Shown here: positions 2,727-64,000 of the stretch, piece by piece | Numbering within the stretch: the stretch's first letter is position 1 | Layout of the letters: the number at the start of each line of letters is the position of its first letter | Origin: Candidatus Heimdallarchaeum endolithica | Lineage (GTDB): Archaea > Asgardarchaeota > Heimdallarchaeia > Heimdallarchaeales > Heimdallarchaeaceae | Assembly (NCBI GenBank): GCA_021513715.1 | Contig: CP084167.1 | Span: 512,001-576,000 of the forward strand | Length of the DNA stretch: 64,000 nt | Direction of reading: 5' to 3' | Position numbers and translations under genes: made by a program | Notes under the pieces: generated by a model | Database searches by the model: none | What the model was told of the DNA's origin: nothing | Seen by the model: only the letters and a program-made list of their open reading frames with translations

Positions 2727-3488
2727 GGTAGTGTCTAGTTTTTATACCACCTCCTAGGCAAAAAGGAACTAAGGGGAGGATGTCCCAAGCTCTGATGAGG
2801 ACGAACGAAATTATAATAGAGTATAAAGAGTGTAAGGAAACCAGAAAGATGGGTAGAGCCATAGACGGCACGAATAGAACATGTGCAGTGGAGAATAGAA
2901 TGAAACCAACGATAGCTCTTAAGTGTGGCATTAAAACGTTCAATATAGGAGCGTAAACCACCATTGATAAAAGAGATTTTGATACCGAGACGAAGTAAGA
3001 CAGGATACCATACCCCTGCATCTGTAACGACAATACGAGGCTTAGAACCCCAACATTTGAACCAATAACGGAAAGTTAGTAAACATTCAAAATTACTCCG
3101 TCCTTTAGTAATACTAAAACCCAGTAAAGTCTTATTGTAAGGATCTAACGCGAACCACATATACATTGAGCCTTGAGAGGTCTTAATCTCTGTTTCATCA
3201 ACTACTATAATCTCTGGTATTCCCCCTCTCTCTGCTACAATTCTATGTAAACTTTCCCTAAAGAGCCTGAACTTCTTTACCCAATACCATAGTGCCTGGT
3301 GTGTTAAACCATTCTTCCATCCTACTGTCCTCAACCCATTCTTTGAACCAATATATTCGTAAATAGCTCTTATGATTATTTTCTTGGGGATTCTGCTCCC
3401 TTTAAAAAGGGAGTATATTCTTAGTTTGTTCATATTTTCACATTAGAATCTCCAATAATATTTTTGTCGGGAGAAACTAGACACCACC
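2727..3488 (-). mobile_element. IS6-family insertion sequence, copy 1 (762 bp)
   Basis: Terminal inverted repeats GGTAGTGTCTAGTTT (2727) and AAACTAGACACCACC (ends 3488). Direct repeat ATTGCAAAT at 2718-2726 and 3489-3497. Contains a DDE transposase. Confidence 0.92.
2735..3433 (-). CDS. IS6-family DDE transposase
   Basis: N-terminal HTH (LTHQALWYWVKKF), VVDETEIK, Y-x-W-x-A-x-D, VVTDAG, IERFNATLK, YYNFVRPHQSLG. The stop codon lies inside the IR. Confidence 0.9.
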   Translation of the reverse strand: MNKLRIYSLFKGSRIPKKIIIRAIYEYIGSKNGLRTVGWKNGLTHQALWYWVKKFRLFRESLHRIVAERGGIPEIIVVDETEIKTSQGSMYMWFALDPYNKTLLGFSITKGRSNFECLLTFRYWFKCWGSKPRIVVTDAGVWYPVLLRLGIKISFINGGLRSYIERFNATLKSYRWFHSILHCTCSIRAVYGSTHLSGFLTLFILYYNFVRPHQSLGHPPLSSFLPRRWYKN

Positions 3489-3645
3489 ATTGCAAATACC
3501 ATTAAACTTTTTATAATCAAACTCATAACAAGATAATTATAACAATAATAATTGTTTTTTATGTTACTTAAAAAGAAATTATAAAGAAGGAAAAAACAAA
3601 AATAGCATGATATATCGTAAAGTAATGTAAGATAAGAAAGAAAAA

Positions 3646-46497: not shown

Positions 46498-49400
46498 TTA
46501 TTCTTTCTTCTTACCTTCACCTATAATTTCCCAATCACGATATTGGCTAAGTAAACGGTCAATCTCATTATCAATATCAATAGTTTCTTTTCTTACAAAA
46601 GATTGCTCAAGTTCATAATATTCACCAATATCAGGGTTAGCTTGTAGGATATCTTTGAGATACTCTTCAACAACAGATTTAGAAAGACCGCTAAGTTCGG
46701 AAATTCGTTGCAAAGTAACAGAAATGTTAGGTTTGAATTGGTTAAGCAAATTAATGAGAGTTTTATATTCTTCTTCTCTCTTCAATGCTTTCATGTACTC
46801 AGATTTAGTTTTATAACCTTGAGCAGAGATTTCCTCCCACTCAGACTTAGTTTTAAATCCTAACTTCATTGCTGTAAACATTTCTTTGATAGAAGAAAAA
46901 CCAAAAGAAGAAGCTCTTTTACGAAGATAAAGTCTAATTCCTATAAAAGTCAAAAAAGCAACAGCACCAGTAACAATGACAGCACCTGTAACTATTGAAA
47001 TAATTGTGATCATTCTTTTAACTTTCAATTTATTTTCTAAATTCGATTTAGGATTAAGGGGATTAAGACCATTTTCTATTTCCTTACCATCTTTATCTCC
47101 ATCTCCATCAGTGTCAGAATTGTTAGGGTCTGTTCCATAAATCTTTACTTCTTCATAATCAGTTAATCCATCACTATCAGAATCACTACTTGTGGGGTTA
47201 GTAAAATATTCTTTAATCTCTTCATAATCAGTTAATCCATCTTCATCTGTATCAGTACTATTAGCAAACGTACCAACATTAAATTCTTCAAGATTGGTTA
47301 AACCATCACCGTCTAAATCAGAGTTGGAATCATCTGTTAATGGGTCTAATCCAGAATGAACTTCATAACCATCAGGCATACCATCTTCGTCAGTGTCTGA
47401 GTTGTTAGCGAAAGTACCAAGAGTATATTCCTCAAAATTAGATAAGTTATCGTTATCGAAATCAGAATTATTATCATTAACAATTGCGTTTGTGCCTGTT
47501 TGAACTTCCCACAAATCATCCATCAAGTCACCATCTGTATCAGTATTATTAGCAAACGTACCAACATTAAATTCTTCAAGATTGGTTAAACCATCACCGT
47601 CTAAATCAGAGTTGGAATCATCTGTTAATGGGTCTAATCCAGAATGAACTTCATAACCATCAGGCATACCATCTTCGTCAGTGTCTGAAACCAAAGGAAC
47701 AGTACCATAAGTGTTAACCTCTTCTCCATCAGTTAAACCATCACTGTCAGTGTCAGAAACCAAAGGATCAGTACCATAAGTGTTAACCTCTTCTCCATCA
47801 GTTAAACCATCACTGTCAGTGTCAGAAGTAGTAGGATCAGTTTTATAATTTACTACTTCATTAAAATCATCCAATCCATCACTGTCAGTATCAACCTTAC
47901 TCATATCTGTCCCTAAAATCTCCTCCTCATGATCAAACAACCCATCACTGTCTGTATCTAAATATGTTCCAGTTCTTTGATTGGTAACTGAATCAGTATA
48001 GAGAGGAGCATATCCAAGACCAAAAGAATTCCAAACAGACACACCATTGTTGTATACAGCAATTATTTCTAGTTCTGAATCATTATCTATATCAGCAACA
48101 GCTAAAGAAGAAAAAGAAACATCACTAATTGTTTTTTTTGGCCAACCAGGAATAACAGTACCATCAATATTCCAAATCGTTCCTCCCCCTCCATACCCTG
48201 CAATTACTTCTAAGGATGAATCGCCATCAACATCAGCAACTGCTAAAGAAGAAACGGAACCAAGCGCTGTTTTTGGCCAATCAGGAATAACAGCACCATT
48301 ACTATTCCAAATAGTAACTCCACCTTCATACCCTGCAATTACTTCTAAGGATGAATCATTATCAATATCAGCAACAGCTAAAGAATAAACAGAACCACTT
48401 GTTGTTTTTGGCCAACCAGGAACAACAGTACCATCACTATTCCAAATAGTGACTCCACCATTTAAAGTTTCTCCATCAAAATATCCTGCAATTACTTCTA
48501 AGGATGAATCATTATCAATATCAGCAACAGCTAAAGAATAAACAGAACCATTTGCTGTTTTTGGCCAATCAGGAATAACAGTACCGTCACTATTCCAAAT
48601 AGTGACTCTACTATCATCCCCGGCAATTATTTCTAGGGATGAATCGCCATCAACATCAGCAACAGCTAAAGAATAAGTATATCCACTTGTTGTTTTTGGC
48701 CAACCAAGAATAACAGCACCATTACTATTCCAAATAGTGACTCCACCTTCATACCCTGCAATTACTTCTAAGGATGAATCATTATCAATATCAGCAACAG
48801 CTAAAGAATAAACAGAACCACTTGTTGTTTTTGGCCAACCAGGAACAACAGTACCATCACTATTCCAAATAACTACTTCACTATTATACCCTGTAAGTAT
48901 TTCTAGGGATGAATCGTCATCAACATCAGCAACAGCTAAAGATCTAACAGAACCACTTGTTGTTTTTGGCCAACCAGGAACAACAGTACCATCACTATTC
49001 CAAATAGTGACTCCACCATCGTTGTAATCACCGTACCCTGCAAGTATTTCTAAAGATGAATCGTCATCAACATCAGCAACAGCTAAAGAATAAACATAAT
49101 CACTTGTTGTTTTTGGCCACGAAGATAAAATTGAATAATAATTAATAAAAAAGTTATAACGAGTGTTGGTGGTATCATAGTTAATTGATACCCAATTAAA
49201 AACATTAGTGCTGCTAATTTGAGCAGCTAAAATATAACCAGAATAATCGATATAGTATAAATATTGACCTTGAATAGTAATTATTCCATTTGTATGCAAA
49301 TAACCCGATAATAATTGTTCATTCGTGGATGAGGAATAAAAGTGCTTTGCATAAACATTTGAAGAGGAACAATATAGTAATTCCCAATCATAATCACTAT

Positions 49401-50643
49401 CCACATCTGTAATTATAGGTTCTTCCTGAATATTTAGCCCTAAAGAACTACTATAATCATTTAGTATCTCTCCGGTAAAAGAAAAACTTTTTTGTTCTCC
49501 GAGTGTTGATAAAGAGATTATTTCATACTCTCTATCCCAATTAATATCAACAATTATTGGACCTAACCACTCGGAATTAGTTGAATCAGTAAGCCAAGAA
49601 TGAATAGTAGTACCATTATTTGATAAAAGATAAAGATTTCTTCCTGCAGGGCAAACAATGTCTATTTTACTGTCTTTGTTGATATCTGCAACAGCAAGAG
49701 GATGAGTAATAGGATCAGTTAAATCTTTGGGAAAATTTGAGATAATGTCTCCATTTCCTTTCCACGCGTAAACTTTTCCATCGGTACTACCTACAATAAC
49801 TTCATTGGAACCATCATTGTCTACATCAGCTAAAACTGGTGCTACTATTACTTCTCCTCCTGTTGTTTTAGGCCAACCAGCTAAAAGATTTCCACTTCCA
49901 TCAAATGCATAAACTTTTGAACTGTTAGATCCAACCACTATCTCATTTTTATTGTCTCCATTAATATCTCCGACTGCTAATGTTTCTTCTACTGGCCCCT
50001 CACAATTGACTGGCCAACCTGGTATAATAGAACCATTACCGTAAAATGCGTAAACCGACCCATTAGCTGCCCCTATAATTATTTCTTCAGTTGCACTATT
50101 TCCATCTATATTAGCTAACATTGGTATGGATGTTAAGGCAACACCTATGCTTTTTCCACCTACCCAATTTGAAGATTCTGTACCATCTGTCTCGTAAACT
50201 CTTATTATACCATTTAATGTTCCCACGACAATTTCATAATTTCCATCTCCGTCTATATCTCCTGTTCCAGGCCCTCCTTTTAACTGTCCCCCTACATATA
50301 TTGGCCAACTACCAAAAGAATTAAGAGATTGAGAGATTTTTTTACCTGAAAAATTGTTATCTAAAAGTTCAGAACGGGAAGAAGTTGTTTTGATCTCTAT
50401 GTCGTTGTTCGCTTCTTCAACTCTTTGTAAATCTGTGTGATAATCATTATTTTGACTTACATTATTTTGACTTACATTATTTTGACTTACATTATTTTGT
50501 TGTGAATCTAAAATGATATTATTAAAATCTTTCATCACTAGAGAATTTGTAGTCATTGAACTTGTAATTATAATTAGTAATGCTACTACCATTCCTAAAT
50601 ATTTTGATTTCCCTCTAAAACTTTTTTTCATTCGTTTCATCAT
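46498..50643 (-). CDS. large surface protein: FG-GAP/VCBS propeller repeats + DxDxDG stalk + TM + cytoplasmic winged-helix-like tail
   Basis: Signal peptide; repeats GWPKTTSG.V.SLAVADVD.DSSLEI; DTDSDGLTDGEE repeats; TM; GFKTKSE repeats; VTLQRISELSGLSKSVVEEYL...GEY; terminal EIDRLLSQYRDWE. Confidence 0.88.
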   Translation of the reverse strand: MMKRMKKSFRGKSKYLGMVVALLIIITSSMTTNSLVMKDFNNIILDSQQNNVSQNNVSQNNVSQNNDYHTDLQRVEEANNDIEIKTTSSRSELLDNNFSGKKISQSLNSFGSWPIYVGGQLKGGPGTGDIDGDGNYEIVVGTLNGIIRVYETDGTESSNWVGGKSIGVALTSIPMLANIDGNSATEEIIIGAANGSVYAFYGNGSIIPGWPVNCEGPVEETLAVGDINGDNKNEIVVGSNSSKVYAFDGSGNLLAGWPKTTGGEVIVAPVLADVDNDGSNEVIVGSTDGKVYAWKGNGDIISNFPKDLTDPITHPLAVADINKDSKIDIVCPAGRNLYLLSNNGTTIHSWLTDSTNSEWLGPIIVDINWDREYEIISLSTLGEQKSFSFTGEILNDYSSSLGLNIQEEPIITDVDSDYDWELLYCSSSNVYAKHFYSSSTNEQLLSGYLHTNGIITIQGQYLYYIDYSGYILAAQISSTNVFNWVSINYDTTNTRYNFFINYYSILSSWPKTTSDYVYSLAVADVDDDSSLEILAGYGDYNDGGVTIWNSDGTVVPGWPKTTSGSVRSLAVADVDDDSSLEILTGYNSEVVIWNSDGTVVPGWPKTTSGSVYSLAVADIDNDSSLEVIAGYEGGVTIWNSNGAVILGWPKTTSGYTYSLAVADVDGDSSLEIIAGDDSRVTIWNSDGTVIPDWPKTANGSVYSLAVADIDNDSSLEVIAGYFDGETLNGGVTIWNSDGTVVPGWPKTTSGSVYSLAVADIDNDSSLEVIAGYEGGVTIWNSNGAVIPDWPKTALGSVSSLAVADVDGDSSLEVIAGYGGGGTIWNIDGTVIPGWPKKTISDVSFSSLAVADIDNDSELEIIAVYNNGVSVWNSFGLGYAPLYTDSVTNQRTGTYLDTDSDGLFDHEEEILGTDMSKVDTDSDGLDDFNEVVNYKTDPTTSDTDSDGLTDGEEVNTYGTDPLVSDTDSDGLTDGEEVNTYGTVPLVSDTDEDGMPDGYEVHSGLDPLTDDSNSDLDGDGLTNLEEFNVGTFANNTDTDGDLMDDLWEVQTGTNAIVNDNNSDFDNDNLSNFEEYTLGTFANNSDTDEDGMPDGYEVHSGLDPLTDDSNSDLDGDGLTNLEEFNVGTFANSTDTDEDGLTDYEEIKEYFTNPTSSDSDSDGLTDYEEVKIYGTDPNNSDTDGDGDKDGKEIENGLNPLNPKSNLENKLKVKRMITIISIVTGAVIVTGAVAFLTFIGIRLYLRKRASSFGFSSIKEMFTAMKLGFKTKSEWEEISAQGYKTKSEYMKALKREEEYKTLINLLNQFKPNISVTLQRISELSGLSKSVVEEYLKDILQANPDIGEYYELEQSFVRKETIDIDNEIDRLLSQYRDWEIIGEGKKKE
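47260..47830. repeat. near-identical intragenic DNA duplications in the DxDxDG stalk (about 140-bp block repeated at 288-bp spacing; 66-bp tandem pair)
   Basis: TTAGCAAACGTACCAAC...GTCAGTGTCTGA occurs at about 47260 and about 47548. CAGTACCATAAGTGTTAACCTC...GTCAGTGTCAGAA occurs twice at about 47700-47830. Confidence 0.8.
48060..49120. repeat. about 8 tandem 120-140-bp FG-GAP-coding repeats with high nucleotide identity
   Basis: Recurrent ATCAGCAACAGCTAAAGAATAAACAGAACCACTTGTTGTTTTTGGCCAACCAGG. Confidence 0.85.
50445..50499. repeat. 15-bp perfect tandem repeat x3.7 encoding (NNVSQ)n
   Basis: CATTATTTTGACTTA repeated, just after the signal peptide. Confidence 0.9.
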
Positions 50644-50894: not shown

Positions 50895-52019
50895 ATGATT
50901 TCTTACTATTCCATAGGCTTATTCTTATTTGAGCAACTTACTTTTATTACTAGTAGCATTATTCTATTTAGAACTTACAAGCAGACTCGTTTTCTTTCTC
51001 ACTTCCTTTTGGGTACTAGCTATCTTTTGTGGATTTTCAATTCTATAGGAAGATTTATTACTTCTTTTTTCAGTGAAAATGTAATAATCTTTAACAATAC
51101 TCGACTTATTTCACTTATTTGGATCATTGTTAATTGTTTATTAATTCTTGGAATGATTTTCGTTTTTTATTCTTTTATTTATTTCAAGACTAACAGATTA
51201 CATCCTATAATAAACATAGTTAGTTTTTTAGGAGGAGCATTATTTCTTGCATTTATAATACCTGATTTCACTGAAATAGCTTACTCTGAACAACTTGGAG
51301 CTTGGTCAGCGAAATATAATATTTGGATATCTGTTCTAGTTGTTCCGATGCTTCTATTCTTCATTTTTTCTTTTATTCTTCCCATTTATACAAAACTTAT
51401 TAGAACTACAGACAAAGATATTCGTAAGCAACTGTTTGTTCAGATAGTCGGGCTTATTATTGTAATTGTCTGGGCATTTTTCGCTGGTTTTACTAACAAT
51501 GCTGTACTTCGAGCTGTTCGTCCTTTCCTTATGGCAGCAGGTTGGTTTATCTGGTCTTTAACTTTGATTATGGATCCTTTCAATATAATGATTTCTAATG
51601 CCAAAATTAGTCAATTATTAATTACAACAACTAGCGGTTTACCTATCTATTATGACGACTTTACTTTTGATGAAAAAGAAGTAAAAAATGAGATTTCTGC
51701 AGATCTAGCTTCAGGTTTAATTTCAGGAGTTACCCAAGCTTTAGAGCAAATAATGGAAAGAAAATCGGAATTAAACACTGTTGTGTATAAAGACAAAGTT
51801 ATAGGTACTACTACAATAGGTTATCTTCAAGCGTATATTTTTGGAGAAAGATTTGATAAGGCTTTAAAAACGGTATTAAATGTTCTTCTAAGAGAAATAC
51901 AAGATAATCCAGCTCTTGCTTTAAAAATAACTCCTAACTTTGTAGATCTAGATGGGGCTTCAGGAAAAATCTTGAAACTTATAATTGAAAGAAATCTAAA
52001 ACGAATATTAGTTATTTAG
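50895..52019 (+). CDS. 7-TM membrane protein fused to C-terminal longin-like domain
   Basis: Seven TM helices, then LLITTTSGLPIYY..F...DLASGLISGVTQALEQI (longin/roadblock-like pattern typical of Asgard proteins). Confidence 0.68.
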   Translation: MISYYSIGLFLFEQLTFITSSIILFRTYKQTRFLSHFLLGTSYLLWIFNSIGRFITSFFSENVIIFNNTRLISLIWIIVNCLLILGMIFVFYSFIYFKTNRLHPIINIVSFLGGALFLAFIIPDFTEIAYSEQLGAWSAKYNIWISVLVVPMLLFFIFSFILPIYTKLIRTTDKDIRKQLFVQIVGLIIVIVWAFFAGFTNNAVLRAVRPFLMAAGWFIWSLTLIMDPFNIMISNAKISQLLITTTSGLPIYYDDFTFDEKEVKNEISADLASGLISGVTQALEQIMERKSELNTVVYKDKVIGTTTIGYLQAYIFGERFDKALKTVLNVLLREIQDNPALALKITPNFVDLDGASGKILKLIIERNLKRILVI

Positions 52020-52166: not shown

Positions 52167-52895
52167 ATGATTGCACCAACTATTGATTCGTTATTGTCTG
52201 CAGCTTTAGGATATTTTTTTGGTTCAATACCTTTATCCTTTATAATTGTCAAAGTTTTTCTTGATGGATTAGATATCCGTACGGTTGGATCAAAAAATGT
52301 CGGTGGAAGAAATGTTATTAGATCTTTCAAGTATAAAGGAAAATCGAATAATGTTGCTTATACTATGGGGTTAATTGTAGCTATCTTTGATATATTAAAA
52401 GGATACTTTGCTATGTGGTTATCACAATACCTATCTTACAATTTTGGAAATAAAGATCCCTGGAGTATTTGTTTTGCAGGTATTTTTGCTATTCTTGGAC
52501 ATAATTGGCCAATATGGTTATTAAGTCATGGCGGAAGAGGAGTAGCAACAACTCTTGGTAACTTAATGTTTTTCAATCCTATTTTCTTTTTAATATGGCT
52601 AGCAACGTTTTTCTTACTCAGTTTTCCTCTGATGTATTCAGCTATTGTTTACATTACTAGTTTTATAGTTATGGGAGTTATTCTATACTTCTGGCCCTGG
52701 TATGTAAGTCCGATGGTAGCAGAACTGAAAAACGACCCAAATCTTGGTTTTATTTCAATGATAATGCTTTTTGGTATAACTCTTGTTGTTCTTTCTCGTC
52801 AAAAATCTAATTTCATGAAAATTAAGAATGGCGAAGCAAAAAGAATGAAACTGTGGAAGATATTCCAAGGAAAGGCAGATGAAGCCCTGAAATAA
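52167..52895 (+). CDS. plsY: PlsY-family glycerol-3-phosphate acyltransferase-like protein
   Basis: GYFFGSIP, DIR..GSKNVGGRNV.R, DILKG, GHNWPIW...GGRGVAT; motif 3 reads RQKSN, with Gln in place of His. Confidence 0.85.
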   Translation: MIAPTIDSLLSAALGYFFGSIPLSFIIVKVFLDGLDIRTVGSKNVGGRNVIRSFKYKGKSNNVAYTMGLIVAIFDILKGYFAMWLSQYLSYNFGNKDPWSICFAGIFAILGHNWPIWLLSHGGRGVATTLGNLMFFNPIFFLIWLATFFLLSFPLMYSAIVYITSFIVMGVILYFWPWYVSPMVAELKNDPNLGFISMIMLFGITLVVLSRQKSNFMKIKNGEAKRMKLWKIFQGKADEALK

Positions 52896-52935: not shown

Positions 52936-53679
52936 TTATATTTGTATTAATTCTGAAGATTCTATTTCCAGCGAAAGAGTCTCTTTTTCATTTTGTATTC
53001 TTAAAAGTCCATTATCCTCAATTCCTTCTACTGTATAGTCTTGATTTTTGTAGATAATATTATTTTTGCATAATATATCGTAAGAATTAAATTCTTTTAA
53101 GATTTCTTCAAAATTATTTCTTAAAACTTTGTTAATATAGTTTTTAATTTGCTTATACAATTCTTTTGTTAATTTCTCATTATCTGCTTTTATTTTCAAG
53201 GATTCATTTATTGAAATAGCTATAGAATTGACTGGAGAGTCTAAAGAAAGAACTTTGTTATTTGTATTTATTCCTATTCCAACGAGTAGAAAATTACAAT
53301 TTGTATCTTTCACTGTATCAATTAAAATTCCGCCTAACTTTCTTTTTTCTAGAATTATATCATTTGGCCATTTAATTTTAACAGGTATAGACAGAATTGT
53401 TTCTATTGCTTTTCTTACTCCTAAAGCAATAGAATAATGAAGAAAAGCATATTGCTTTTGATTTATTTCTTCTTTTTTACAAAAAACAAACGTTCCCCAC
53501 CAACCTCCTTTTGGAGAAAACCATTTATTCTGTTTTCTTCCAATACTTGCAGATTGTTCCTCTGCTATTATTAACAAATCTTCATTTTTTGCTAATTCTA
53601 AATAAGACAAAGCTACATTTTGAGTGGAAGGAACAGATTGAAAATGAATGATTTTCAAGGAAAAGGATTCTTGAACCAT
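52936..53679 (-). CDS. birA: biotin--protein ligase (no N-terminal HTH)
   Basis: V.STQ, AEEQ...GR...WFSPKGG, IKWPNDI, KLGGIL, VGIGIN, GI...G.L. Confidence 0.92.
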   Translation of the reverse strand: MVQESFSLKIIHFQSVPSTQNVALSYLELAKNEDLLIIAEEQSASIGRKQNKWFSPKGGWWGTFVFCKKEEINQKQYAFLHYSIALGVRKAIETILSIPVKIKWPNDIILEKRKLGGILIDTVKDTNCNFLLVGIGINTNNKVLSLDSPVNSIAISINESLKIKADNEKLTKELYKQIKNYINKVLRNNFEEILKEFNSYDILCKNNIIYKNQDYTVEGIEDNGLLRIQNEKETLSLEIESSELIQI

Positions 53680-53792: not shown

Positions 53793-55367
53793 ATGGCTCG
53801 TATTACTCATATTGGACATGATAAAGGAAATTTGGAAGAAAAAAGACAAACAATACTTTCACTAAGAGAAATTTCGCTAAAAGGTGGTGGAGAAGAAAAA
53901 ATAGCTAGTCAACACAAAAAAGGAAAGCTTACAGCAAGGGAGAGAATAGAGTTATTAGTTGACGAAAATTCTTTTTGCGAAATAGATCAAATAAGAAAAT
54001 CTCAGCATTCTGAATTAGAAATGGAGAAAATAGAAGGAGACGGGGTAGTAACAGGTTATGCAACTATTAATGGTAGACGAGTCTTTATTTATAGTCAAGA
54101 TTTTACAGTTTTGGGAGGAAGTTTAGGAAAAACTCATGCAAAAAAAATATGTAAAGTTATGGATCATGCTCTACAGAGTGGGTGTCCTATAATAGGCATA
54201 CTTGACTCAGGAGGAGCAAGAATTCAAGAAGGAATAGATTCTCTAGCAGGATATGGCGAAATTTTTTATAGGAATGTAATGAGCTCAGGAGTAGTTCCCC
54301 AAGTTTCAATTATTTTAGGTCCCTGTGCTGGAGGAGCTGTCTATTCTCCTGCACTAACTGATTTTATTATTATGAATCAAATTAATTCATTTATGTTTGT
54401 TACTGGTCCTCAAGTTGTTAAGACAGTTACAGGGGAAGATGTTTCATTCTATGATTTAGGTGGAAGTGAGGTACATGGTTCTCTTAGTGGAGTTAGTCAT
54501 TTAGTAGGAGAAGATGAAGAGGAAACAATAAATTTAGCTAAAAAACTTTTATCTTACCTCCCATCGAACAATTTAGATGACCCTCCACAAGAAATAGATG
54601 ATATAGAAGAAAATGGTCAAGATATTCTTTCTGATATTATTCCAGAGCAGGAAAACGAGCCTTATGATATGAAAAAAGTAGTTGAAACAGTTTTAGACCA
54701 AGACAGTTTCTTTGAATTACAAGAAAGTTGGGCAAAAAATATTATTGTTGGCTTTGGGAGGTTAGATGGTTTAACTGTTGGTATTATTGCAAACCAACCT
54801 TTATTCCTTGGAGGTGCTATAGAATATAATGCTGCAGATAAAGCAGCTAGATTTATTCGTTTTTGTGATTCATTTAACATCCCCATAATTACTTTCGTTG
54901 ATGTACCTGGATTTATGCCAGGGGTAAAACAAGAGCATGAAGGAATAATTCGTCATGGAGCTAAAATGCTTTTTGCTTATTCAGAAGCTACTGTCCCAAA
55001 ACTTGCAGTAATAACAAGAAAAGCTTATGGAGGAGCTTATATTGTTATGAGCTCAAAGCATTTAGGAGCTGATATTAATTTTGCTTGGCCTACAGCAGAA
55101 ATAGCTGTCATGGGGGCAGAGGGAGCTTGTAATATTATTTATAGAAAAGAACTGAAAAAAGCTGAAAATCCAGAACAAGCTTTGCAAGATTTTGTTGCAA
55201 AATACAAAAAACAATTCAGCAATCCTATTCGAGCAGCTGAAAAAGGATATATTGACAAAGTTATTTTGCCTGAAGAAACAAGGATTGAACTTTCTAATGC
55301 CTTGAAATTTTTACAAAATAAAAGAATAGATATCCCGAAAAGAAAACACGGGAATATTCCACTTTAA
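53793..55367 (+). CDS. pccB: acyl-CoA carboxylase carboxyltransferase subunit (PccB/MmdA family)
   Basis: GKLTARERI, GDGVVTG, QDFTVLGGSLG, DSGGARIQEG, GPCAGGAVY, DVPGFMPG, RKAYGGAY, KHGNIPL. Substrate specificity not determinable. Confidence 0.9.
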   Translation: MARITHIGHDKGNLEEKRQTILSLREISLKGGGEEKIASQHKKGKLTARERIELLVDENSFCEIDQIRKSQHSELEMEKIEGDGVVTGYATINGRRVFIYSQDFTVLGGSLGKTHAKKICKVMDHALQSGCPIIGILDSGGARIQEGIDSLAGYGEIFYRNVMSSGVVPQVSIILGPCAGGAVYSPALTDFIIMNQINSFMFVTGPQVVKTVTGEDVSFYDLGGSEVHGSLSGVSHLVGEDEEETINLAKKLLSYLPSNNLDDPPQEIDDIEENGQDILSDIIPEQENEPYDMKKVVETVLDQDSFFELQESWAKNIIVGFGRLDGLTVGIIANQPLFLGGAIEYNAADKAARFIRFCDSFNIPIITFVDVPGFMPGVKQEHEGIIRHGAKMLFAYSEATVPKLAVITRKAYGGAYIVMSSKHLGADINFAWPTAEIAVMGAEGACNIIYRKELKKAENPEQALQDFVAKYKKQFSNPIRAAEKGYIDKVILPEETRIELSNALKFLQNKRIDIPKRKHGNIPL

Positions 55368-55388: not shown

Positions 55389-58300
55389 ATGAAAACTCAA
55401 AAAGAACTAAAAAATGAACTACAAATTAAATATCCAATTTTCGGATATAATCCTATTGGACTTACTGATCCCACGTTTGCTATTGAAATCTCCAGACTTG
55501 GAGGAGTGGGATTATTTAACACTATTGGACTTGAACAAGAAGAACTAACTAAGATTCTTGATCAATGCGAACTTAATCTGCCCACACAACTATGGGGCGT
55601 AAGGATTAACGATCTTTCTCACATTAAATGGATAAATCATGAACGAAGTATTCCAATCGTCATCCTACCGGAGAAACCTACAAGATTACAACTGGATAAA
55701 CTGCGTAAAATAAGTAAATTTATTGTCTCTGAAGTTTTATTTGTTGAAGAAGCAAAAAGTCATCTTGAATGGTCAGATTTCTTTTTAGTTAAAGGTATTG
55801 AAGCAGGAGGAAAAGTAGGTACAAAAGCTTCTTTTATTCAGATTCAAGAGTTTTATGAAACTGGATGGCCTTTTATCATTCAAGGAGGAATTGGAGCTTT
55901 TAATATTAGTTCTGCTCTAATAGGAGGAGCAATAGGAGTAGTTTTTGAGGGACAATTATACCAATTTCCTGAATGTCCTCTTTCTGAAGAAGTGAAAAAA
56001 TATCTTGCTTCTTTAGGTGAAAATGATTCTTTTATTATCAATGAAAGTGGTAAAGAAGGTTATAGAATTTCTGGAAAATTAGCAAATAAGGCTATTAGAG
56101 AGATAAAGCAATTAGAAGAAGAATCAAGTGAGGAAAAAATACTTGATAGGATCACTGAATTTGAAAAACCACATGAACAATTTGGTTTTAAGAGTCAAAA
56201 CATAAAACACGCATTTTTACCACTAGGTAATGATGTTTTCTTCTCCACATTCTTCAAAAAAAGATTTGGAAATTTAGCAAATTTTGTGAAACAAGCTCTT
56301 AAGATAGCTGATGAACAAATAGAAATTGCTCTAAAAAATTGGCCTTTTGCAAAAGGATCTCCTTTATCCAATTTTCTTGGGACAAAATATCCTATTATCC
56401 AGGGGCCTATGGCTAATGTTTCTGATAATGTAGATTTTGCTGTTAATGTAGCGAAAAGTGGAGCTCTACCTTTCTTAGCTTTAGGTGGACTACTAAAAGA
56501 AGAAACAGAGGAGCTGTTTGATAAAGTTAGAAAAAGTGAACTTTTGAAATATTCCTACGGCTGTGGAATTATAGGTTTAGAAGCAGTTAAACAAAGGAGA
56601 GAAGAGCATCTATCTTTAATGAGAGAACTTAAACCCCCTTTTGCTTTAATTGCTGCAGGAACAGTTAATTTAGCAAAACAAGTACAAGAGATGGGTTTTA
56701 AGACTTTATTACATACTCCTGCTCTATCAATGTTCAAAGATTCTATCAAAAATGGGATAGATCTACAGATTTTAGAAGGGAGTGAATGTGGAGGTCACAT
56801 TGGTCTCCTTTCATCCTTTATTTTATGGGAAAGCATATTGGAATTTTTAGATGAAAATAGAGAACAGATAGAAAAACCTTTGAAAATAGTTTTTGCAGGT
56901 GGGATATCTGATGGAACTAGTTCTGCGATGTTAGCAACCATGATCGCTAAACATCTAGATATAATAGAACCAGCAATACAAATGGGTACATCCTATTTAT
57001 TTACAGAAGAAATTTTAGAAACAAAAGCTTTAACTGGATTTTATCAAGAGCTTCTTCTTAATGCAAATTACACCAGAATAATAGGTTCAACAGTAAATAC
57101 TCGGGCACGAGCTGCACCTTCTCCTTTTGTAGATCAAACAATTAAAAGAGAAAGAGAGAGAATTAGACAAAAAATACCAATAAAGGAAAGGAAAGAACTT
57201 TATGAGAAAGATAATCTAGGTGCTTTAAGAATAGCAGCTAAAGCTGAAAAATGGAATAACAATCATATTCCTGGTACAGGAACTACCCAATTTATAAAAA
57301 TCGATGAAAAGGAACAAAAAAACTTTGGATGTTTTATGGCAGGAGAAGTAATAGCTAAAAAACGAAGTATATACAAGATAGAAGATTTACATTATGATAT
57401 TTCAATAATTGGAAAGGAAATTCTAGAAAAACAGTCAACTTCTATTGCTGAATATTTAGTTCCAAATGAAAAACTGGAAGTTTATTCTAAGGAACAAAGT
57501 CCTCTTGTTATAGATAGTAGTAATAAAATTGCTATTGTAGGAATAGGCAGTTTCTTTCCTGATGCTCCAAACACTGAAAAGTTCTGGGAAAATATTATTA
57601 ACAAACATTATTCTATAACAGAAGTTCCCATTGAAAGATGGGATCCTAAATATTATTATGATGAAGATCGAACAGCTCCAGATAAAACTTATACTAAAAT
57701 AGGAGCGTTTGTAAAAGAATTCAAATTTAAACCAATTCAATTCAAGATTCCTCCTAAAGTAGCTGAAAAGATGGATGAAGTACAGAAATGGTCATTAGTT
57801 GCTGCAAAAGAAGCTTTAGAAGATGCTGGTATTCCAACAGATGGAAAGAAGCGTCTACCTATAGGAGTAATTGTAGGAAATGCTTTAGGTGGAGAGAATC
57901 AGAGATTAACTAACAGAAGGTTACACTATCCTGAAATTGAAGAACAACTAAGAGTTTTGTTAAGTTCGAAATTATCTGATGAAGAAGTAGAAAAACTTGT
58001 TTCTTCTTTTAGAAAAGAATATCTCAGTAAATACGCAGAAATCACAGAGGATACTATGCCTGGAGAATTGTCTAATATAGTTGCAGGAAGAATAGCAAAT
58101 ATTTTCAATTTATCTGGTAAATCAATGACTACAGATGCTGCTTGCGCATCTTCTCTAGCTGCTCTAGATATAGCTGTAAAAAGTTTGTTGAACAATGATT
58201 TTGAAACAATTCTTGTGGGTGGAGCAGATAGATCAATGGATGTTTCTTCTTATGTTAAATTTAGTAAGATCGGTGCTCTTTCTGCAACTGGTTCTCGACC

Positions 58301-64000: not shown

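Follow-up and report, generated by a model that had tools for sequence, protein, structure and literature searches.

The closest described systems are the Type R gene clusters of Shulse and Allen (2011), in which a pfaA homolog with the domain order KS-MAT-CLF-ACP(3-6)-KR (ketosynthase, malonyl acyltransferase, chain-length factor, three to six acyl carrier proteins, ketoreductase) is accompanied by a downstream phosphopantetheinyl transferase (PPTase) gene (PMC3098273). These clusters were described from Koribacter, Solibacter, Elusimicrobium and Roseiflexus, and the one in Koribacter also contains a carboxylase gene (PMC3098273). Here we describe a single-chain synthase encoded in a 64,000-nucleotide stretch of the archaeon Candidatus Heimdallarchaeum endolithica (assembly GCA_021513715.1, contig CP084167.1, positions 512,001 to 576,000 of the forward strand), hereafter the window. 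Judged by its domains, this protein fits a Type R PfaA-like secondary-lipid synthase onto which two enoyl reductases (ERs) and a PPTase have been fused. In its archaeal host, it is probably the sole de novo fatty acid synthase (FAS), an Asgard-specific fused variant of Type R that would make saturated chains and feed them to the acyltransferase PlsY.

The synthase frame opens with an ATG at position 55389 of the forward strand, with a ribosome-binding site (GAGGAG) 7 nt upstream, and stays open to the end of the window (55389..64000). Read on the genome contig (G000:C1), it reaches its end at G000:C1:577936, equivalent to position 65936 if the window numbering is carried on, and encodes a protein of 3,515 amino acids (G000:C1:567389-577936) with no stop codon and no ambiguous base (N) within. 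A preliminary description of this DNA had proposed a single unbroken open reading frame (ORF) of more than 2870 residues. The full-length frame bears this out: no stop or frameshift splits it, and all of the motifs quoted in that description recur in its translation. The genome is one contig of 3,326,783 bp with a G+C content of 30.8% and an estimated completeness of 92.6%. According to its publication it is a closed circle, with circular genomes of 3.08 Mb and 3.32 Mb reported for H. aukensis and H. endolithica PR6, respectively (Wu et al. 2022; PMC8813620). The synthase gene (G+C 0.31-0.34) lies near the window in base composition.

Domains were called with Pfam and NCBIfam profiles, and their conservation was assessed over 60-120 homologous sequences. 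The resulting order, all on the forward strand, is a pseudo-ER, a FabK-type ER, a first ketosynthase (KS1), a malonyl-type acyltransferase (AT), a second ketosynthase (KS2), three acyl carrier proteins (ACPs), a ketoreductase (KR), a dehydratase (DH) of the polyketide synthase (PKS) type and an Sfp-type PPTase. The profiles recover two FabK/NMO-type barrels, both KS domains, the AT, three PP-binding domains and the KR in the window; the PS-DH dehydratase and the PPTase lie past its end on the same chain.

The condensing and loading domains are strongly conserved. KS1 (57501..58958, residues 705-1190; PF00109 and PF02801) is PfaA/FabF-like, and its Cys919, His1053 and His1094 are invariant in 111 of 111 homologs. 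The AT (58971..59918, residues 1195-1510) scores 247.9 bits against the FabD model, and its GQGSQ, GHSxG and AFHS motifs are invariant in 116 homologs, the last marking it as malonyl-type, as had been proposed. KS2 (60306..61898, residues ~1640-2170) is divergent and corresponds to the 'CLF' of Type R. Its Cys1860, His2008 and His2048 are invariant in 121 of 121 homologs and align with the FabF triad, Lys2043 and the GFG loop of FabF-type enzymes are retained, and a family signature, SHETYTPxRGG, is conserved. Because the Cys-His-His triad is both invariant and aligned with that of FabF, KS2 is not a chain-length factor, in agreement with the preliminary description, which had argued that it keeps all three catalytic residues and is no dead subunit.

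The remaining domains complete a full reducing loop. As previously noted, three ACP-like domains (each PF00550) and a KR follow KS2: ACP1 (61944..62150) with attachment site Ser2217 in DLGIDSI, ACP2 (62265..62468) with Thr2323 at the attachment position in DLGIDTV, and ACP3 (62598..62801) with attachment site Ser2434 in DLGVDSI. The KR and its structural subdomain (63246..64000 in the window, residues ~2620-2995; PF08659) run on to ~G000:C1:576373, and 112 homologs conserve its TGGxxGIT motif together with Ser2887, Tyr2900 and Asn2904. Beyond the window, the DH (residues ~3000-3290; PF21089 and PF14765) has conserved His3035, Pro3044 and Gln3202. The PPTase (residues ~3320-3515; PF22624 and PF01648) conserves Asp3416, Glu3418, Trp3451, Lys3454 and Glu3455 within the GIDIE (D-x-E) and WTAKESLTK (W-x-x-K-E) motifs of Sfp-type enzymes. 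The set of KS, AT, ACP, KR, DH and ER domains that makes up a type I FAS is complete, with catalytic residues intact, and the conservation of all its catalytic motifs upholds the earlier proposal of an all-in-one iterative synthase.

The two ER domains have had different fates. ER1 (55389..56348, residues 1-320; FabK model E 8e-11) carries Lys142 at the position of the FabK His, where K, R or I are the most frequent residues among 62 homologs, and reads FGYNPIG in place of the flavin-binding QGxMA motif. In ER2 (56349..57488, residues 321-700), which reads IIQGPMA, His470 is invariant in 64 of 64 homologs and aligns with the His of FabK from S. pneumoniae (2Z6I). ER2 has both hallmarks of FabK, the His of E-x-G-G-H and QGxMA, whereas ER1 has neither, which confirms the reported loss of the GGH His from the first barrel alone. 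By profile, both domains give only weak matches to the FabK model. Residues 1-700 were modelled with AlphaFold from a 10-sequence alignment (mean pLDDT 87.6, pTM 0.92). In this model ER1 and ER2 form one rigid unit, which among known structures comes closest to those of FabK (target TM-score 0.86), with yeast FAS among the weak matches. We read ER1 as a catalytically dead partner barrel that would stand in for the second subunit of a FabK-like dimer.

Compared with Type R, the Heimdallarchaeum synthase shares the core order of KS, AT, second KS-like domain, tandem ACPs and KR(-DH), the constant co-encoding of a PPTase and a carboxylase gene that is often adjacent. Its KS2 is 40-50% identical to, and falls in one tree with, sequences of Acidobacteriota (including Bryobacterales) and Chloroflexota, in a set of compared loci that is without the Koribacter, Solibacter, Elusimicrobium and Roseiflexus strains. 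It differs from Type R in the two FabK-type barrels fused to its N-terminus and the PPTase fused to its C-terminus, in having a complete Cys-His-His KS in place of the 'CLF', and in that the Asgard sequences form a group of their own. Further, Type R synthases are considered 'secondary' to a coexisting primary FAS, whereas the H. endolithica genome holds no other KS, ACP or FabA/FabZ. Since the archaeal host has no FAS II, there is no other fatty acid pathway to which the product could be 'secondary'. Nor can a function be borrowed from Type R, which is listed as uncharacterised (PMC3098273).

The resemblance to polyunsaturated fatty acid (PUFA) synthases (PfaA-E of bacteria and thraustochytrids) is more limited. 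KS1, AT, tandem ACPs, KR and PS-DH resemble PfaA, the ER belongs to the same flavin mononucleotide (FMN) TIM-barrel class as PfaD and FabK, and two KS-type domains per system and an Sfp-type PPTase are common to both. However, the protein scores 871.4 bits against the PfaA model TIGR02813, below the cut-off of 1010, and a PUFA-type CLF would be expected to lack the active-site Cys that is invariant in KS2. There is no PfaB, all domains sit on one chain, and no FabA-type dehydratase/isomerase occurs in the genome, so that there is no route to cis double bonds. Membership among PUFA synthases was rejected on the score, the missing FabA-type domain and the KS2 Cys, and the PUFA-like character once suggested for the enzyme falls on the first two of these points.

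With type I FAS, both animal and fungal/Corynebacterineae, the synthase shares KS, AT, KR, DH, ER and ACP on one polypeptide and iterative full reduction, and with fungal FAS in particular an FMN TIM-barrel ER and a built-in PPTase. It nonetheless differs in domain order and ancestry, in its two KS domains, three ACPs and dead ER partner, and in lacking a thioesterase or malonyl/palmitoyl transferase within the chain, and by sequence it belongs to neither family. Among stand-alone enzymes, FabK of S. pneumoniae (2Z6I) is matched by ER2 in its catalytic His and flavin-binding motifs, but not by ER1, which has lost the His and QGxMA, nor by the tandem fusion of the two barrels.

No other fatty acid synthase is apparent in the genome. 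When each synthase domain was searched with phmmer against all genome ORFs, the synthase alone was matched. PF00109 recovers its two KS domains, two weak matches that are archaeal thiolases and no other KS; PF00550 recovers its three carriers and no free ACP; and there is no PF07977 (FabA/FabZ) anywhere in the genome. We considered whether the host might be a bacterium whose FAS II had been replaced. This was rejected on a full-length 16S match to the archaeal small-subunit rRNA model (1,324 bits, exceeding other models of the clan), the names of homologs and the 96% identity of KS2 to that of Ca. H. aukensis. The absence of FAS II is the archaeal default rather than the outcome of a replacement. 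A 2024 preprint on coenzyme A (CoA)-based archaeal fatty acid synthesis describes archaea as being without FAS I and FAS II, with ACP absent from nearly all of them (10.1101/2024.07.05.601840).

The genes around the synthase have functions in lipid synthesis and precursor supply. Upstream lie PlsY, the acyl-phosphate:glycerol-phosphate acyltransferase (52167..52895, forward strand; PF02660 E 9e-34, with TIGR00023 at 124.5 bits and below its cut-off of 137.2), and, on the reverse strand, a biotin-protein ligase with a BirA catalytic domain (52936..53679; TIGR00121 139.4 bits against a cut-off of 83.1). The TIGR00121 match led us to reject a lipoate ligase as the identity of this gene. Immediately before the synthase is the 524-aa carboxyltransferase subunit of an acyl-CoA carboxylase (53793..55367, forward strand; PF01039 E 1e-189). 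Downstream, numbered on locus sequence L002, follow a 253-aa alpha/beta-hydrolase that is a candidate releasing thioesterase (L002:2972-3733, forward strand), the biotin carboxyl carrier protein (BCCP; L002:3755-4237, forward strand) and, on the reverse strand, biotin carboxylase (L002:4302-5807). The hydrolase has a GESFG elbow, an Asp and a His, as read from its sequence. Gaps between carboxyltransferase, synthase, hydrolase and BCCP are only 21, 35 and 21 nt. The preliminary description had overlooked this carboxylase and PlsY context, as well as the archaeal identity of the host and its lack of a further fatty acid synthase.

This gene set also surrounds the homologs of Ca. Harpocratesius repetitus (Lokiarchaeial), of a JGI contig encoding an Arf-family GTPase and of a contig labelled Zixibacteria, and the carboxylase/hydrolase synteny is retained in distant Asgard lineages. 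Among ten archaeal loci, within the limits of flank length, the carboxyltransferase is found in eight, the hydrolase in six and BCCP in six, and a biotin-protein ligase adjoins the synthase in loci L015 and L017. The 68 bacterial loci share only a recurring biotin-carboxylase-like gene (35/68). Within the flanks, most archaeal loci and 15/68 bacterial ones have a PPTase either fused to the synthase or close by. The contig labelled Zixibacteria (L017, GCA_035528535.1) carries an Asgard-type synthase cluster whose KS2 groups with Asgard sequences, and neighbouring genes for an RPB9-type zinc ribbon and a ThiI/THUMP protein look archaeal. The contig is probably archaeal and was mis-binned or mislabelled.

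The synthase family is large. A homolog search with the KS2 region returned 2,730 long proteins, and statistics were drawn from the best 120 of these, which are 39-96% identical over that region. The layout ER1-ER2-KS1-AT-KS2-ACPn-KR-DH-PPT is the commonest among these 120, followed by a second class without the ER pair, and the source names are Heimdall-, Loki/Promethe-, Thor-, Hod- and Kariarchaeal, Thermoplasmatota and some bacteria. The nearest public locus, with KS2 96% identical, is that of Ca. Heimdallarchaeum aukensis PM71. In a survey of 301 sampled genomes of the phylum, the four families of the order have the KS2 type in 23/28, 8/11, 1/1 and 2/3 of their genomes, and one more family of the class has it in 9/11; elsewhere it is patchy or absent (0/21, 0/76, 5/68 and 3/7 genomes). 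The synthase is thus near-universal in its archaeal order. Carrier (PP-binding) matches across the phylum fall almost only inside long synthase frames. The architecture had been described as unusual, but it is the commonest among the best 120 homologs, near-universal in the order, and corresponds to Type R (PMC3098273).

Scanning species-representative genomes for KS2 turned up relatives with 40-50% identity among Acidobacteriota, Chloroflexota, Actinomycetota, Thermodesulfobacteriota, Calditrichota and others, including cultured strains of Amycolatopsis and Paractinoplanes. In a quick, unrooted KS2 tree of 64 rows, a branch with an SH-aLRT of 98 has every Asgard-type sequence to one side of it, and Thermoplasmatota form a separate group among bacterial sequences. 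The placement of Asgard KS2 on one side of this branch points to an old, retained trait. Additional free-standing KS2-like ORFs of ~500-590 aa, 44-49% identical to KS2, were seen in six genomes (G002, G005, G006, G019, G024 and G026), two of them with in-frame TGA codons.

Taken together, the domains and gene context suggest how the favoured pathway, a de novo synthase feeding PlsY, might run. Malonyl-CoA would come from the carboxylase encoded alongside (carboxyltransferase, BCCP and biotin carboxylase, with biotin attached by the adjacent ligase), the C-terminal PPTase would arm the three carrier domains, and the AT would load them with malonyl units. Condensations would then be carried out by KS1 and KS2, probably paired within one chain, with their work probably divided by chain length or between priming and elongation. 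Each beta-keto group would be fully reduced by KR, DH and ER2 to give saturated chains, with ER1 presumably a dead barrel packed on ER2. The free acid may be released by the downstream alpha/beta-hydrolase, converted to acyl-phosphate by a FakA-like kinase domain together with nine DegV/FakB-like proteins, and the acyl group passed to glycerol phosphate by PlsY.

The last steps of this route would also draw on genes elsewhere in the genome. PlsY is present in three copies and was found in every sampled genome of the order; in one sister family of the class (f6) it is unusually expanded, with 4-11 matches per genome. The substrate of bacterial PlsY is acyl-phosphate. No PlsX was found in the genome, and acyl-phosphate would therefore have to come from a fatty acid kinase. 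Nine DegV/FakB-like ORFs are present (G000:C1 3260915-3267428, 3228979, 1628449, 806002, 1190390 and 1411572), one with an internal stop and one partial, together with two stand-alone Dak2 proteins of 209-227 aa (G000:C1 684627 and 1748603). The Dak2 proteins match the N-terminal kinase domain of FakA/YloV at 1.5e-69 against 3e-7 for DhaL, a difference on which their identity as dihydroxyacetone kinase subunits was rejected. By sequence similarity, the DegV/FakB-like set and the FakA-N-like domains look like a split fatty acid kinase system. One Dak2 gene is followed by a 441-aa ORF with no family match.

Several observations weigh against a membrane fatty acid synthase feeding PlsY. At the level of the synthase itself, Type R is listed as uncharacterised, and the product is not known for any member (PMC3098273). 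Bacterial relatives coexist with FAS II, where their role is accessory, and most carriers of the family have at the attachment site not Ser but Thr, a putative acceptor of phosphopantetheine. Further along the route, the hydrolase is by sequence a generic esterase that matches AntI and ACOT2 weakly, and the Fak kinase is represented by an N-domain fragment only. PlsC was not found in the genome, in agreement with PMC8813620, and the standard diacyl phospholipid pathway is therefore incomplete. The genome also encodes a glycerol-1-phosphate dehydrogenase (at the curated cut-off), a UbiA prenyltransferase resembling digeranylgeranylglyceryl phosphate synthase, and two copies of CarS. Since these archaeal ether-lipid genes are kept, isoprenoid ether lipids are probably still made. 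Finally, in the one Asgard culture that the consulted papers discuss, lipid analysis gave archaeal lipids only (PMC13400652, citing Imachi 2020), in an organism whose synthase content was not looked at.

The ether-lipid complement is itself uneven. Geranylgeranylglyceryl phosphate (GGGP) synthase (PF01884) was not detected in H. endolithica or in the closed genome of its sister species, and over the 18 sampled genomes of family f1 there are three matches, one of them strong. With PlsY present and both PlsC and GGGP synthase undetected, a mixed acyl/isoprenyl lipid is conceivable, although this is pure speculation.

The first alternative, in line with what is presumed of Type R clusters in bacteria, is that the enzyme is a secondary-lipid or polyketide-like synthase of a specialised long-chain product rather than of bulk membrane fatty acids. 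Such a product could be an acyl chain that is very long, hydroxylated or modified in some other way, a diol, a hydrocarbon, or a lipid with a signalling or surface role. The family was defined as secondary-lipid synthases of unknown product (PMC3098273), its relatives at 40-50% identity live in bacterial phyla with FAS II, such systems typically contain tandem carrier domains, and the host mostly retains its archaeal ether-lipid genes. However, the ER fused in the Asgard synthase gives a complete reducing loop, neither the ORF nor its neighbours contain a tailoring domain, reductase or condensation-type release domain, and the conserved neighbours (carboxylase subunits, hydrolase and PlsY) have primary lipid functions. 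We regard a specialised product as rather unlikely, if still worth serious consideration.

A second alternative assigns KS2 a special condensation, such as the head-to-head joining or branching of chains to give very long or branched lipids. KS2 does form a distinct, strongly conserved clade with its own SHETYTPxRGG signature, and some relatives encode the free-standing KS2-like gene of 500-590 aa. Yet KS2 keeps the FabF-type set for decarboxylative Claisen condensation (Cys, two His, Lys and the GFG loop), and PUFA synthases, too, normally have two active KS domains per system. Known OleA-type enzymes that join chains are members of the FabH-like branch and use a different catalytic set, which also counts against such a role. 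The preliminary description had raised chain joining and branched products, but nothing in the data points there, and we consider this role improbable.

It is slightly less probable still that the enzyme, like mitochondrial FAS, serves mainly in cofactor supply, making short acyl carriers such as octanoyl groups destined for lipoylation rather than membrane lipid. In favour of this, archaea are otherwise without carrier-bound acyl chains. ACP is described as absent from nearly all of them (10.1101/2024.07.05.601840). Against this, the adjacent ligase is a biotin ligase and not LipB or LplA, no lipoate genes were seen in the cluster, and the three carriers, the dedicated carboxylase and PlsY point to flux into lipids.

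That the gene is a recent transfer or is decaying without current function, as the split of the sister species' copy into two ORFs by an internal tandem duplication might suggest, is the least credible explanation, given that all active sites are intact, the gene and its synteny are conserved across the order and beyond, its G+C is near that of the window, and the tree unites the Asgard sequences in one group. In that sister species, H. aukensis, residues 798-1466 (KS1 and part of the AT) are tandemly duplicated at locus L018 (CP084166.1:483914-497953), giving ORFs of 1,200 and 2,729 aa, and an extra PPTase-like fragment lies ~2 kb downstream.

A sole de novo synthase feeding PlsY would bear on the 'lipid divide', the open question of how the bacterial-type fatty-acid ester membranes of eukaryotes arose from an archaeal host lineage. 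PlsY and PlsC homologs in Asgard archaea are already known (PMC6431249, PMC6737245, PMC13400652), and the source of acyl chains for these enzymes has so far been unclear. The locus described here encodes a carrier-dependent synthase that is complete and self-priming and comes with a malonyl-CoA supply of its own. It is situated by PlsY and conserved in the order that holds the closest known relatives of eukaryotes. It allows a test of whether Asgard archaea make bacterial or eukaryote-type lipids. As cloning requires just one gene, or an operon of four, the question is directly testable, and it is this, with the host lineage, that makes the locus of high interest. Our literature search returned no paper treating the synthase as an archaeal fatty acid synthase, an absence that is no proof of novelty, and a paper on Marine Group II does not mention PKS or FAS.

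The carrier domains have a further peculiarity. Across the family, carrier repeats follow the pattern (E/A)-D-L-G-I-D-T-(V/I)-K-Q, with Thr in place of the Ser that bears phosphopantetheine. Thr occupies this position in 369/391 carrier motifs of the top homologs and 219/221 of the fetched loci, in archaea and bacteria alike, and in alignments it coincides with the Ser of the PigH carriers and of AcpM. The H. endolithica synthase has the pattern Ser-Thr-Ser, as does that of H. aukensis. If the PPTase were specialised for Thr carriers, it would make sense that it always travels with the synthase.

We tentatively extend the idea of a synthase feeding PlsY to a broader and more doubtful one. Heimdallarchaeia, the archaea nearest to eukaryotes, might produce fatty acids themselves by means of a carrier-dependent single-chain synthase that is ancient and was kept by vertical descent, convert them to acyl-phosphate and pass them through PlsY into ester or mixed ester/ether glycerolipids, with the carriers armed on Thr by a dedicated PPTase. 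If true, this would provide both a living intermediate across the 'lipid divide' and a new kind of carrier-protein modification. The Thr carrier site, shared by hundreds of archaeal and bacterial members, and the obligate pair of active ketosynthases are also of interest to megasynthase enzymologists.

An Rfam scan of the window gave no match, and a scan for sigma-70 promoters and terminators found fewer promoter-like matches than in shuffled sequence, a bacterial model being uninformative for an archaeon. Upstream of the lipid cluster, a 374-aa ORF at 50895-52019 (forward strand) has no Pfam or NCBIfam match, and positions 46498-50643 (reverse strand) encode a 1,381-aa protein of FG-GAP and TSP3 repeats.

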